From positions 40,003 through 104,002 of the forward strand of contig JALNYO010000010.1 in assembly GCA_023229765.1 (NCBI GenBank): 64,000 nt of DNA, in the 5' to 3' direction. The position numbers and the translations under genes were made by a program. This DNA is from Syntrophales bacterium. GTDB lineage: Bacteria > Desulfobacterota > Syntrophia > Syntrophales > UBA5619. Every line of letters begins with the position of its first letter. Positions within the stretch are counted from its first letter, which is position 1. The notes under the pieces were generated by a model that ran no database searches, was not told the origin of the DNA, and saw nothing but the letters and a program-made list of their open reading frames with translations. Shown here piece by piece: positions 26,332 to 30,905 of this stretch.

Positions 26332-27774
26332 ATGTATAAAGACATGTTGAAAAATGGCAAAATGCGTTTGGTTTCATTGTTAGGTGCGATAGCAATAGTT
26401 TTTTTTGTTCTCTGGGGCTGCGGCGGTGGGACATCAAGTTATGATGCTGTCAATTACGACCCGGTGTTGACAAAAACCGCCAATGCGTTAGTCGATGCCA
26501 CAACATTGAAGGGCTGGATGGATCAGGGGCTTGTACAGGGAGTGTCTTCTCCATTCGTTGCAGGTGAAAAAGTCGTTATCCTTGATTACAAGGATGCAAC
26601 GGCCTATGCCAGTGGTCACATTCCGGGTGCCGTCAGGGTGGACGGCGGCGAACTGCTGCTTACCCGTCTCGAAGGCGTTGCGGAAATGGGGTCGCTTGTC
26701 ACTGACGGTCCGCATATGGATGCAATTATACAAAGGGCCGGCATCGATGCAAATACAACAATTGTTTTCACAAGCTCCAGTGTTTCCAACGCAACCAGAG
26801 CATATGCCACATTCCGCTATTGGGGATTCCCTAAGAGCCGGTTGAAAGTGCTCGATGGGGTCGATACCGTCTGGAAGGCTGCAAATCCAATGAGTCTGGC
26901 CACCCCGACTATAAAGCCCTCCAGTTATTGCGTTACGCCGAACGGCGTCAATCGCGTCCAGACGCAGCTTCGCGCTTCGCTGGGCGAAATGATGCATGCA
27001 GTTCAGAATTATGATGGGACGAAACACGCCATCATCGACGATCTGAGCAATCCGGCGAACGGCCTGGCAGTGCCGGTGACTTCGACTTCCACCTGGTCGG
27101 GGAATATTTACAAGGGGATTCCCGGATCGACATCGGGGTTACTTCCCTATGCAGTCAGCGCCACGACGGAATATGTGGTTTTTGAAGGACATATGAAAAA
27201 TGCCGTAAATTTGTACGCTACGAACATGTATGCTGGCAACGTATTCTTCCCCGCAGACGATGGCACTCCCGCCAGCCTCAAAAGCAAGTTCAACGCCGTC
27301 GGGATGGACGAGACAAAAACCGCTTATATCTACTGCCGCGCTGGCAACTTCGCGACGATTGAATTCTTTGCCCTGGATGGCATCTTGAACTGGAACGTCG
27401 TATGGTATGACGGTTCCTGGGGACAGTGGGCGCTCATGGCGGACAAGAAGGGCGGCAAACTAAAAGCGGGATCGATCTGGTCAACATACCCGCTCAGCGT
27501 TTCCGATCCCGTGCCGAACACTACCGATACGCTTCTGCCGAAATATGTAAGGGATGCGGTTGACGGAGTCACCTACAACACGGACAACACACCGGTCGGA
27601 AGTGCCGTAAAATATCCGATACAGCCTTTGCCCTATTACATTAATCTGGATGTCTTTACCTCGGTCACCGATCCGGCGGCAAACCAGATAGAAGCGACGG
27701 ACAAGGCTTACAAAAGCCCGCTTAGCTCACCCTCGGGCGGTTCTTCCGGCGGTTCCTCCGGCGGCGGCTGCTAA
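26332..27774 (+). CDS. extH: Tandem-rhodanese lipoprotein (ExtH-like) with Gly/Ser tail ending in Cys
   Basis: 480 aa. The lipobox is VLWGC. The first rhodanese domain is inactive and the second carries the catalytic loop YCRAGNFAT. The C-terminus reads SSPSGGSSGGSSGGGC-stop. The rhodanese-porin-small protein-pentaheme order matches my recollection of Geobacter ExtHIJK. Confidence 0.7.
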   Translation: MYKDMLKNGKMRLVSLLGAIAIVFFVLWGCGGGTSSYDAVNYDPVLTKTANALVDATTLKGWMDQGLVQGVSSPFVAGEKVVILDYKDATAYASGHIPGAVRVDGGELLLTRLEGVAEMGSLVTDGPHMDAIIQRAGIDANTTIVFTSSSVSNATRAYATFRYWGFPKSRLKVLDGVDTVWKAANPMSLATPTIKPSSYCVTPNGVNRVQTQLRASLGEMMHAVQNYDGTKHAIIDDLSNPANGLAVPVTSTSTWSGNIYKGIPGSTSGLLPYAVSATTEYVVFEGHMKNAVNLYATNMYAGNVFFPADDGTPASLKSKFNAVGMDETKTAYIYCRAGNFATIEFFALDGILNWNVVWYDGSWGQWALMADKKGGKLKAGSIWSTYPLSVSDPVPNTTDTLLPKYVRDAVDGVTYNTDNTPVGSAVKYPIQPLPYYINLDVFTSVTDPAANQIEATDKAYKSPLSSPSGGSSGGSSGGGC

Positions 27775-27844: not shown

Positions 27845-29053
27845 ATGCCAAAAAACAGAATAACAGCAAAACTCGCAGCAGTTGTCCTTGGTGTGGCGCT
27901 GCTCGCCGGGACCGCCTATGCCGGTCCGCAAGTGAAGTTCGGGCCGAAAGATGAAGGTCTGCTGCAACTCGACTACAAGGGGCAATTGCAGATGACCATG
28001 CGCGACAATGGTTCCGGGACCAACAAGGAATCTGCCACCTATGATTTCAACTTTCGCCGCAACCGCCTGGCTCTCATGGGCAAATATGGCGAGCTGATAA
28101 GCATTTATGTGCAGACGGAGTACACCGAGCATCAGGATCTTGGCACGCTCACTGTAAGCGATACCGACAGCGGTTACGAGTTTCAGATGCTCGACGCGGT
28201 AGTGCGGTTCAACTTCGCTGATGCGTTCAAGGTGAACGCCGGCAAGTTCAAATACAACCTTTCGCGTGAAAACCTGGAAGCATGTGAAATGCCTCTTACC
28301 CTCGATCGGTCTCTCTTCATCCGCGCCCCCTATGTGACCACCCGTGACAAGGGTATCGCGATCTGGGGGAACCTGTTTGATGACATGTTCCAGTATCGGG
28401 CCGATGTCATGGAGGGGAGAAATGCCACTACCGCGGCCGCTCCCCAGCCGGAATCGAGTTTCCGGTATTCGGTGCGCGGCCATGTGACGCTTCTGGATCC
28501 GGAAAACGACTATGGCTATAAAGGGACCTATCTGGGGAATAAACAGGTTCTGACCATCGGCGCCGCCTATCAGTTTGAACCAGACGTCGCTTATGCGGAT
28601 ACCGTTGCCAAAACCGACGCGAAGGATTACAAGGCGTGGACGGCCGACATCTTTTTTGAATACCCCATAGAGAATTTTGGCACGGTTACCGCTTCCGCCG
28701 CCTATGAGGATATCGATCTCGGCAACGCATACAAGGGTTTTAATCCCGATCCAGATACGATTGGATTAAAGGGGGAGAAGAACGGTTTTTACGTAAAGGC
28801 CGGCTACATGCTGCCGAATACCCCGCTGCAGTTCTTTGCCAGATATGAAAAGTGGGCGTTTGCAAACCTGAATGGCATTGTCGACCAGGAGGTGGAATGG
28901 TACGGTGGAGGCTTCAATTACTACATCCGGGGCCAGAACCTGAAGATCACGCTTGAAGCGAGCAATACAAGTTTTGACAAGGGGACCGGGACCAGCGCCG
29001 ACAGTACCGAAAGTTTTATGACTTTCGTCGCGCAGCTTCAGGTTATCTTCTAA
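27845..29053 (+). CDS. extI: Outer-membrane beta-barrel porin (ExtI-like)
   Basis: 402 aa. The signal peptide ends in AGTAYA-GP. Alternating beta-strand periodicity is visible, and the C-terminal FVAQLQVIF has the terminal Phe typical of OMPs. Confidence 0.75.
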   Translation: MPKNRITAKLAAVVLGVALLAGTAYAGPQVKFGPKDEGLLQLDYKGQLQMTMRDNGSGTNKESATYDFNFRRNRLALMGKYGELISIYVQTEYTEHQDLGTLTVSDTDSGYEFQMLDAVVRFNFADAFKVNAGKFKYNLSRENLEACEMPLTLDRSLFIRAPYVTTRDKGIAIWGNLFDDMFQYRADVMEGRNATTAAAPQPESSFRYSVRGHVTLLDPENDYGYKGTYLGNKQVLTIGAAYQFEPDVAYADTVAKTDAKDYKAWTADIFFEYPIENFGTVTASAAYEDIDLGNAYKGFNPDPDTIGLKGEKNGFYVKAGYMLPNTPLQFFARYEKWAFANLNGIVDQEVEWYGGGFNYYIRGQNLKITLEASNTSFDKGTGTSADSTESFMTFVAQLQVIF

Positions 29054-29142: not shown

Positions 29143-29463
29143 ATGTCCGGAAGAATCAGGATCGGGATTATGGCGTTTTTGCTGGTTGTTTTAATGTCGG
29201 CATCGGCGATTGCGGCGGAGAAAATTAACTGCAAGGTTGCGAAGGTATCCGGGGACAAGGTTACCGTGGCAATCGAGGGAGCGGTTCCCCCGTGGGTGAA
29301 GAGCGGGGCTACGGTTATCGGCGGCGGCGGCGCCCCGAAGATTGTTTCAATGAAGGGCAATGAAGTTGTTCTGCGCTTCAGCAGAGCCAAGGCTGCCAAA
29401 ATCAAGGTTGACTCAACGATTTCCCTGGAAGAGTCGTCTGGGGATGAGCTTCAGGGCTGCTGA
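29143..29463 (+). CDS. extJ: Small secreted protein (ExtJ-like) ending in Cys
   Basis: 106 aa. The signal peptide reads MAFLLVVLMSASAIA-AEK and the mature protein is about 80 aa. The C-terminus is SSGDELQGC-stop. RBS AAAGGAGG lies upstream. Confidence 0.6.
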   Translation: MSGRIRIGIMAFLLVVLMSASAIAAEKINCKVAKVSGDKVTVAIEGAVPPWVKSGATVIGGGGAPKIVSMKGNEVVLRFSRAKAAKIKVDSTISLEESSGDELQGC

Positions 29464-29552
29464 TTCTAAAGAGGGGGGCGACCGCACTTTCGCGTGTAAG
29501 GAGCTTTCAACATGCGGTTGTCTTCCCTAAAACAGGTTAGAGAGAGGTGGGT

Positions 29553-30905
29553 ATGATAAAAATACCAATGAAAGGTCTGCTGTTGGCGGTTATAGGGATC
29601 ATCGCCTTCGCTTCTCTTTCGTTTGCGGAAAAGGCCGGGATCGGTTGGAAAGAAACCATCGTCGCCAAATCCGGAAAGGCAAAGAGCGTTGCAGAGCTGG
29701 CAAAGATGTATGATTCGAGCTCGTGCGTTGAATGTCACAAGGAGCAGCATGACGAGGCTCAGAAGTCTATTCATTCGCGCTCGATTTTCGGCACGGCGCG
29801 TACAGCGATGACGATCATGAGCTCTATTGAAAATGGCTGGATGGAACAGCCTTATTCGGGGGTGAAGAGTCCGAAAGATGTGAAGGTGGAGCATCTGATG
29901 GGATGTGCGAAGTGCCATCTGCCGCAGCTTGCGGACGCCGAGGACTCGGTTGCCCAGGAGATTGTTACGTCTCTTTACCGCTGGAAAGACGCTCTGAAGA
30001 GGAAGGACAAGGAGACGGCGCAGAAGGAAGAAGCCAAACTGAAGAGCGTTTCCATTAACTGTCTTGTCTGCCATAACCGTAACGCCATCACCCATAAATG
30101 GCAGGATGGCTATCCGAAGGCGGGCGTTGTTTACGGCTCGAAGGATGGGGATCATCCCTCGGATGCTTTTCCGAAGATGGCAGTCAGTCCCATTATGAAA
30201 GAGGCGATTCAGTGCGGCCAGTGCCACGGGCTCGGCCCGAATTTCGAGCTGGACGAACCGACCCAGTGCTGCACTTCTTACGGCAGCTATCTTTGGTCGT
30301 ACAAATCCGAGGTGGGACAAGAGTCCTGTCAGGGTTGCCACATGGAAAAGAGCAAGCTCGGTCATAATATCCAGGGATATAGGGACCCGGCGATGATTAA
30401 GGATGCGGTCGACTTCAAGGTCGAGGCATTCGGATACTACTGGCGCGACATAACCGACCTTGTTCCGAAGGTTGTGGTGAAGGTGGAGATGATCAACCGG
30501 TCGGGACACTCCATCCCCGATGGGTGACCGACCCCCAACCGACTGGTTCTGTCGGTAATTGCAACAACGAAGGATGGCGAAGAGGTTTTCAATCAGGAAA
30601 AGGTTTACATGCCGGTGCCGCAGCAATTGGCCCGGGGGGACCGGATGGGACGAGGCCCTTATGAAAAGAGCGGGATAATCGAGGATACTGGTCTCCCTCC
30701 CGGCAAGGCTGTTCATGAGCGTTTCGATATTCTTTATCCGTTCGGCGATGTAAAGGAGAACGGGAAGACGGTCAATAAACAGCTGGCGCACGATCTGAAT
30801 GTCGAAGTGAAGCTCTGGTACCTTCCGTTCGGGTCGATGAATTCGAATGCGTTTCTCTGGCGTGAATTCAAAAAGACCGTCAGCGTCAGCACGAAAGGGA
30901 AATAG
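29553..30905 (+). CDS. extK: Periplasmic pentaheme c-type cytochrome (ExtK-like), probable selenoprotein with UGA at 30525-30527 read as Sec
   Basis: Signal peptide plus five CxxCH motifs (CVECH, CAKCH, CLVCH, CGQCH, CQGCH). Track ORFs 29547-30527 and 30609-30905 share one frame. The 81 nt between them contain no stop. The UGA falls inside a contiguous beta-rich domain (VKVEMINRSGHSIPDG-U-PTPNRLVLSVIATTKDGEEV). A SECIS-like hairpin follows (see feature 30525-30556). Confidence 0.65.
30525..30556 (+). other. In-frame UGA plus SECIS-like hairpin
   Basis: The UGA is at 30525-30527. The stem ACCGAC (30538-30543) pairs with GTCGGT (30551-30556) around the 7-nt loop UGGUUCU, which contains GGUU. 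The first loop G is 20 nt from the U of UGA. Confidence 0.55.

Follow-up and report, generated by a model that had tools for sequence, protein, structure and literature searches.

In SoxY, sulfur intermediates are carried on a cysteine of a swinging arm (PMC5336275). In DsrC and in thioredoxin reductase, whose arm bears a Gly-Cys-Sec-Gly sequence (Sec, selenocysteine), a flexible C-terminal arm moves a redox-active chalcogen from a fixed site to the substrate. The rhodaneses Sud of Wolinella succinogenes and SbdP of Aquifex are described in PMC6378623 as binding polysulfide sulfur on a cysteine and supplying a respiratory sulfur reductase with it. Here, we analyse the C-terminal tail of ExtH, a rhodanese lipoprotein encoded by the extH gene in a stretch of 64,000 nucleotides (nt) from a Syntrophales bacterium (contig JALNYO010000010.1, positions 40,003 to 104,002; hereafter the window). 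The tail is a low-complexity arm that ends in Gly-Cys, and we show that this end is strongly conserved and that the tail is tightly associated with the gene of a porin, ExtI.

ExtH has been described only as a rhodanese-like lipoprotein, its C-terminus going unmentioned (Jahan et al. 2018; Otero et al. 2018). The same operon encodes ExtKL, also called MccSep, a periplasmic pentahaem selenoenzyme that acts on polysulfide and is a poorer reductase of selenite (Mihara et al. 2026, PMC13510729). MccSep is essential for the respiration of elemental sulfur (S0), and its authors regard the route of sulfur entry and additional sulfur-transfer components as unknown; ExtH and the small protein ExtJ, encoded between ExtI and ExtKL, are not discussed in their paper (PMC13510729). 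The preliminary description of this stretch was aware of no earlier account of such a swinging arm on a rhodanese lipoprotein. Our survey of the literature, in which the curator notes of NCBIfam entries were not covered, likewise found no description of the terminal cysteine of ExtH or ExtJ.

We aligned ExtH with relatives (alignment A1, 31 sequences) and predicted its structure with AlphaFold2 (AF2). The features of the gene are as follows.

26332..27774, + strand: extH, open reading frame (ORF) of 480 amino acids (aa), tandem-domain rhodanese lipoprotein
26419..26421, + strand: lipobox Cys30 (LWG-C), predicted lipid attachment site, invariant in A1, codon checked
27334..27354, + strand: rhodanese active-site loop C335-RAGNFA, with the codon of Cys335, invariant in A1, at 27334-27336
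27679..27711, + strand: helix ANQIEATDKAY, residues 450-460, the ordered base of the tail (alignment and AF2)
27712..27768, + strand: low-complexity linker KSPLSSPSGGSSGGSSGGG, residues 461-479 (AF2 and family comparison)
27731..27764, + strand: 12-nt tandem repeat encoding GGSS units (Tandem Repeats Finder, 2.8 copies, 86% matches)
27769..27771, + strand: TGC codon of the terminal Cys480, followed by the stop TAA at 27772-27774

ExtH matches the NCBIfam model NF040901 at 356.2 bits, for a cutoff of 200, and is 99% identical to a database protein from a Syntrophales metagenome-assembled genome. Its signal peptide is followed by ...VFFVLWG-C30, which on reading the sequence fits the lipobox [LVI][ASTVI][GAS]C, and residues 25-42 form a disordered tether in the AF2 model (predicted local distance difference test, pLDDT, 79.6; predicted template modelling score, pTM, 0.82). 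Pfam Rhodanese is found in two stretches, and the best Foldseek matches of the model are the tandem rhodaneses 3hzu (SseA), 1uar and 1rhd, with E values of 1e-14 to 1e-16. ExtH belongs to the ExtH family and to the tandem rhodaneses, with sulfur transfer as its predicted activity. The core is about 20% identical to SseA, bovine rhodanese and MST, none of which has a comparable tail. The active-site loop CRAGNFA named in the preliminary description is borne out: the catalytic Cys335 opens a six-residue loop in the C-terminal rhodanese domain, and C335-RAGNF is invariant in A1.

The match to NF040901 spans residues 9-460, and because it stops there the tail lies outside the curated model. At the base of the tail, A450, Q452, E454, D457 and Y460 are invariant in A1, and AF2 places a helix at residues 452-459, within a block (451-460) of mean pLDDT 90. 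Over residues 466-480 pLDDT is below 50 and the tail is predicted to be disordered, in agreement with the unstructured Gly-rich arm proposed earlier. Codons 465-480 (27724-27771) encode SSPSGGSSGGSSGGGC, and the end given before, SSPSGGSSGGSSGGGC-TAA at 27724-27774, is exact to the letter, with 16 codons plus the stop. The claim that a 12-nt unit is repeated three times stands in part. The tandem repeat is real, and by manual count its first two units agree at 11 of 12 bases, but the copy number is 2.8 and the third unit (ggcggcggctgc) has only 7 of 12 bases in common with the first. At the protein level this gives about two and a half GGSS units, then GGGC. The repeat is not kept in ExtH relatives, every one of which has a different linker, and is therefore not the feature under selection.

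What selection does keep becomes clear from the family. We pooled database homologues, representatives of 50%-identity clusters and 80 genome loci, which gave 243 unique Cys-ending tails. Of the first 120 homologues, which show 33-99% identity and come in two sizes, about 450 and about 825 aa, 117 have the terminal cysteine; in the window itself ExtH is the only one of 48 ORFs of at least 200 aa to end in this residue. Only three cysteines are invariant in A1: Cys30 of the lipobox, Cys335 of the active site and Cys480 at the end. Gly479 is invariant too, and a glycine precedes the terminal cysteine in 228 of the 243 tails, none of which has a second cysteine in its linker. Across the family, linkers are made of G (33%), S (19%), A (10%), T (10%) and P (9%), with bulky or charged residues at about 10%. 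From the conserved D..Y helix to the end the tail counts 16-36 residues (median 21, standard deviation 3.2), and that of the window's ExtH, with 20, is at the mode. Aligning homologues, the check suggested in the preliminary description, thus shows the terminal cysteine, the preceding glycine and the length of the linker to be kept from Geobacterales to Nitrospirota while linker sequence varies; the lack of conservation that would have refuted the proposal is clearly not observed. The sequence of the tail drifts freely; its length, slimness and end residue are held, and the conservation of the terminal Gly-Cys is far above chance. These data bear directly on the simplest explanation of the tail, a neutral low-complexity extension arising by slippage of the 12-nt repeat. 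A tandem repeat is indeed present and the linkers are hypervariable, but against it stand an invariant Gly-Cys end, a narrow range of lengths and a coupling to ExtI, detailed below, that is tight across phyla. Conservation effectively refutes a neutral origin.

How does this arm compare with the described ones? Like SoxY, ExtH has a Gly-flanked cysteine at the end of a flexible C-terminal peptide, on which it would carry sulfur covalently between periplasmic enzymes. Yet neither ExtH nor ExtJ has a SoxY or SoxZ match in Pfam or NCBIfam, and ExtH ends in GGGC-COOH, with the cysteine last, instead of the GGCGG motif of SoxY. Its arm of about 20 residues is fused to a catalytic rhodanese lipoprotein, and its pathway, which includes a pore of the outer membrane, reduces polysulfide or selenite. 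With Sud and SbdP it shares the company of a respiratory enzyme, since its operon encodes the polysulfide reductase ExtKL/MccSep, which would be the acceptor. However, Sud is soluble, single-domain and tailless, has one cysteine and serves the molybdoenzyme Psr, whereas ExtH is a lipoprotein with tandem domains, three conserved cysteines, a terminal thiol and a dedicated porin. DsrC and TusE have two arm cysteines about ten residues apart, against one in ExtH, which has neither the DsrC fold nor the flavoprotein fold of thioredoxin reductase and whose arm is much longer and of low complexity. The defining features of SoxY, DsrC and Sud were looked for and are missing, and hence ExtH is not a member of any of them. 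By analogy, its arm would nevertheless work like the carrier arms of these families.

The gene that follows extH encodes the partner most relevant to the function of the tail.

27845..29053, + strand: extI, OprO/OprP-like anion porin, 70 nt downstream of extH
28241..28351, + strand: long loop of ExtI, 37 residues (133-169), between strands five (128-132) and six (170-177) of the AF2 model
28283..28285, + strand: codon TGT of Cys147, the only cysteine of ExtI, in the motif RENLEACEMPLTLDR

ExtI matches NCBIfam NF040900 at 680 bits and Pfam Porin_O_P. Its AF2 model (pLDDT 62.6) is a 16-strand barrel with OprO (4rjw) and OprP (2o4v) as best Foldseek matches; a profile search of PDB sequences with ExtI gave no match, and these two porins were reached only by fold comparison. 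Among the 68 tail-bearing genome loci with enough downstream DNA, 66 have an ExtI relative directly downstream, usually at less than 100 nt. None of six tailless ExtH relatives has one there (Fisher's exact p = 1.5e-7), although at one of these loci, L084, an ExtI relative lies two genes upstream. The association also holds in the reverse direction: 70 of the 72 metagenome ExtI loci with upstream DNA have a Cys-ending ExtH directly upstream. Nitrospirota loci consist of the ExtH-ExtI pair alone, and ExtJ, ExtKL and cytochromes were not found within 10 kb of it; ExtK, ExtM and ExtN are confined to some lineages among the genome loci. The most conserved partner of ExtH is the porin rather than the cytochromes. 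This revises one part of the preliminary description, which had proposed a SoxY-like delivery of sulfur to the cytochromes or the porin: gene context favours a carrier or relay, but places the porin, not the cytochromes, at its centre.

ExtI mediates selenite uptake and is required for the outer-membrane localisation of ExtH (Jahan 2019, as summarised in PMC8981825), a dependence that suggests direct contact between the two proteins. In our main rival explanation, the tail would serve contact itself. It would be a docking or anchoring thread that inserts into ExtI, its terminal carboxylate, the one fixed charge that it has, being drawn to the anion-selective pore, and that holds ExtH in place or gates the porin; the end residue would fit a pocket, and in the Gly-Cys class it would make a structural disulfide with Cys147 of ExtI. 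The localisation of ExtH and the co-occurrence of tail and porin in both directions speak for this. RcsF, an outer-membrane lipoprotein partnered with OmpA/C/F, has its N-terminal linker threaded through the porin lumen, which serves surface exposure and signalling and involves no thiol chemistry. ExtH is also an outer-membrane lipoprotein with a disordered segment coupled to a beta-barrel, and its threading is hypothetical. Yet ExtH already has a lipid anchor, and a stable disulfide would be unlikely in a periplasm where sulfide is produced.

The single cysteine of ExtI is also conserved. All 62 genome loci and all 120 database homologues have the motif RENLE[AD]C[EF].PL[TS]LDR; so do 78 of 80 metagenome loci, and of the two that lack it one runs off its contig. 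Cys147 is invariant across Desulfobacterota and Nitrospirota and sits in the most conserved stretch of ExtI. An invariant cysteine is unusual for a porin. By the topology of classical porins, the loop that bears it would occupy the position of the constriction loop L3. Cys147 does not co-vary with the class of the ExtH tail, for it is kept even in loci where the tail ends in another residue.

Such loci form a subclass of ExtH relatives in which the Gly-rich tail is kept and ends in [AV]PGY in place of Gly-Cys (APGY class). Each of the five complete loci of this class has, between the ExtH-like and ExtI genes, a gene for a small, secreted protein of low complexity whose last residues are CSC, CGC or CCC (genome loci are designated by L numbers, with positions within each).

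L016, 2054-2342: Cys-ended insert (this and the four below end in KYRD..C[SG]C or DCCC)
L029, 3797-4081: Cys-ended insert
L033, 11599-11859: Cys-ended insert
L042, 11650-11925: Cys-ended insert
L089, 7744-8004: Cys-ended insert

These proteins were found only where the tail is of the APGY class, and in loci of the Gly-Cys class there is no space for a gene of this kind. The one that we scanned against Pfam and NCBIfam (from L029) matched no family. Two conclusions follow. Since the APGY class keeps the tail without the thiol, the tail has some Cys-independent role, perhaps docking; and since a separate Cys-ended protein appears in the same loci, the thiol itself is under selection. The first favours the docking thread, as do the Gly-Tyr ends of two L084 proteins, one ExtJ-like and the other a Big_2 lipoprotein, encoded next to a relative of ExtI; the second argues against it. 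The same can be said of ExtJ, which bears an identical Gly-Cys end although it is soluble and linked to ExtKL rather than to ExtI. On balance we consider docking an unlikely account of the tail, but docking and carrying may combine in one and the same structure.

Several loci depart from the common arrangement. At L084 (2775-7217), an ExtI relative with the pore cysteine is followed by the Big_2 lipoprotein (LQSGY end), a tailless Big_5-rhodanese and the ExtJ-like protein, which has 91 aa and ends in SAAGY; Gly-Tyr thus replaces Gly-Cys on several proteins of this locus. At L081 (1-6938), a tailless ExtH relative follows PsrA-like, NrfD and 4Fe-4S genes, with an ExtM homologue coming after it, and is preceded by a secreted Lys/Glu-rich protein of 66 aa ending in SGC. 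At L087 (7829-10368), an ExtH paralogue with a Gly-Cys tail, from a subgroup that we call GCC-lipobox, comes after two genes for transporters of the YeeE/YedE type (Sulf_transp). The contexts at L081 and L087 point to sulfur metabolism.

The active site provides further clues on the chemistry. The catalytic column holds a cysteine in 230 of 243 aligned relatives, and both catalytic and terminal cysteines are found in 190 sequences; one sequence has serine in the active site. In 7 of the 80 genome loci, mostly from Nitrospirota, an in-frame TGA stands at the catalytic position (..HVY-U-RTGVIASS..), and the reading frame stays open as far as the tail.

L014, 10958-10960: TGA at the catalytic codon
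L029, 3084-3086: TGA at the catalytic codon
L042, 10937-10939: TGA at the catalytic codon
L061, 10901-10903: TGA at the catalytic codon
L072, 10811-10813: TGA at the catalytic codon
L033 and L034: likewise

These are probable selenocysteine variants of ExtH that gene callers truncate, and rhodanese-type selenoproteins are a family already listed. A search for SECIS hairpins after the TGA showed a small conserved hairpin whose folding energy is not significantly different from that of shuffled sequences (z from -1.1 to +0.1). Selenocysteine at the active site points to nucleophilic or redox chemistry. This chemistry could be confined to ExtH itself. Cys480 would then act as an intramolecular second thiol that folds onto Cys335, resolves its persulfide and releases sulfide, serving the cycle of ExtH only; alternatively, Cys335 and Cys480 would form a Cys-S-Se-S-Cys selenotrisulfide from selenite. 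In line with this, the two cysteines co-occur in 190 sequences, a tail of 20 residues should be able to reach back, and the selenocysteine variants keep it, so that a selenenylsulfide would be possible as in the arm of thioredoxin reductase. But a separate protein can supply the thiol, the tail follows the porin and not merely the catalytic domain, given that tailless relatives with an intact active site exist, and even the minimum of 16 residues would exceed what folding back needs. We regard a purely intramolecular function as decidedly improbable.

Further downstream, the operon encodes two proteins that would act together with ExtH.

29143..29463, + strand: extJ (NCBIfam NF040942), small secreted beta-rich protein ending in ...DELQGC-stop, with the codon of Cys106 at 29458-29460
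29547..30905, + strand: extKL (MccSep; NCBIfam NF040886), pentahaem selenoprotein with an in-frame TGA (Sec327) at 30525-30527

The full order after extH is ExtI, ExtJ, ExtKL, ExtM, ExtN/O, ExtP, ExtQ and ExtS, each matching its own NCBIfam model, with ExtP at 220.5 bits falling under the curated cutoff of 290. ExtJ is a secreted protein of roughly 80 residues that co-occurs with ExtKL. All 56 relatives examined end in [LM][QM]GC, namely those of the 24 genome loci that have ExtK and the 32 complete copies from metagenomes. A Pfam scan of ExtJ matched no family. Being small, secreted and beta-rich it resembles SoxY, and it has the look of a carrier of that type serving the polysulfide reductase, the likeness being one of form, as SoxY homology was not detected.

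We considered whether the TGA stop of ExtJ might be read as selenocysteine, giving a Gly-Cys-Sec end like that of thioredoxin reductase. This was ruled out: homologues stop at TGA (45), TAA (16) or TAG (8) with no conservation downstream, and because all three stop codons occur the stops are genuine. At two Geobacter-type loci, L004 (near 17388) and L009 (near 11415), a second small ORF ending in [LM]QGC lies between the ExtK and ExtM regions and perhaps arose by duplication of an ExtJ-like gene.

ExtKL is one gene with five CxxCH motifs, which ORF callers split at the TGA. Its SIPDG-U-PTPNR matches the selenocysteine peptide of the Geobacter sulfurreducens enzyme, for which the authors draw a parallel with thioredoxin reductase (PMC13510729). 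We equated its Cys-Cys pair at 241-242, without an alignment, with the haem-ligating Cys239 of G. sulfurreducens MccSep. The relayed sulfur or selenium would probably end up on ExtKL. Yet another explanation is that the terminal thiolate and carboxylate (a phenolate in the Tyr class) would bind iron, another metal or the haem of a partner cytochrome. Cysteine and tyrosine, both ligands of metals and haem, do alternate at the terminus, and Fur regulation has been reported for ExtH and ExtKL (PMC5877670). However, the haem-ligating cysteine of MccSep is internal (PMC13510729), the tail has no metal-binding motif, and the Nitrospirota loci, reduced to ExtH and ExtI, have no cytochromes within 10 kb. 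A ligand role thus seems very unlikely.

We favour the view that the tail of ExtH serves as a tethered thiol, on which sulfane sulfur or selenium would travel between the pore, the rhodanese site and acceptors in the periplasm, a proposition for which we see the chances as about even. Several observations lead to it. The thiol is what selection keeps, and a separate flexible protein can supply it. ExtJ shares the Gly-Cys end, and the linker is slim enough for channels. The chemistry of the operon is now known to be the reduction of polysulfide and selenite. ExtH, a lipid-anchored tandem rhodanese, would work with the anion porin ExtI. Its last 20 residues would form a thin, nearly uncharged, disordered thread rooted in the helix ANQIE..D..Y and tipped by Gly-Cys-COOH, and the terminal cysteine would bear either sulfane sulfur, in persulfide or polysulfide form, or selenium, in the form of a selenosulfide or perselenide. 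Such a thread might visit three stations. The first would be Cys147 of ExtI in its constriction-type loop, or else the substrate arriving through the pore; the second would be the catalytic Cys335 of the rhodanese; and the third would be the soluble periplasmic acceptors, i.e. ExtJ and then, through ExtJ or directly, ExtKL/MccSep. We infer the loading of the thiol, its reach to the pore cysteine and the order of the transfers from the features described above.

Several points weigh against the tethered thiol. Any adduct on Cys480 is hypothetical. ExtH could face the periplasm or the cell surface. The residues of ExtI around Cys147 (127-168) have a pLDDT below 50, and Cys147 is placed in the pore lumen by strand topology rather than from the coordinates. 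A rhodanese can hand sulfur straight to its acceptors without any arm, as Sud does. Two classes of relatives also fit poorly: the APGY class, with a tail and no terminal thiol, is not explained by a pure sulfur carrier, and the GCC-lipobox subgroup (L003, L008 and L087) has a Gly-Cys tail without an adjacent ExtI.

One might go further and speculate that ExtH, ExtI and ExtJ together make a thiol relay across the outer membrane, i.e. that an insoluble electron acceptor is imported through a porin in covalent, protein-borne form. The eyelet cysteine of ExtI would capture external sulfane sulfur (polysulfide or S0) or selenium. The thread of ExtH would enter the pore from the periplasm, carboxylate first, and pull the sulfur chain off by thiol-persulfide exchange. 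Next, both the rhodanese site and ExtJ would receive the sulfur from the tail, and ExtJ would feed the haem-selenocysteine polysulfide reductase. We hold this extended scheme to be doubtful; passing sulfur through a porin by a covalent relay of thiols would be a new kind of mechanism.

Respiration of elemental sulfur is widespread, and its terminal enzyme in Geobacter, MccSep or ExtKL, was identified only in 2026. The cysteine of ExtI, the thread of ExtH and the Gly-Cys end of ExtJ provide a concrete hypothesis for the missing step by which sulfur would cross to MccSep, and this hypothesis extends likewise to the uptake and reduction of selenite and tellurite. Two sequence features can serve as markers for annotating the module in metagenomes, namely a Gly/Ser linker with Gly-Cys at the protein's end and the RENLExC motif of the porin. 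If the hypothesis is true, the principle of the carrier arm, used by SoxY in sulfur oxidation and by DsrC in sulfite reduction, would reach sulfur reduction and the outer membrane.

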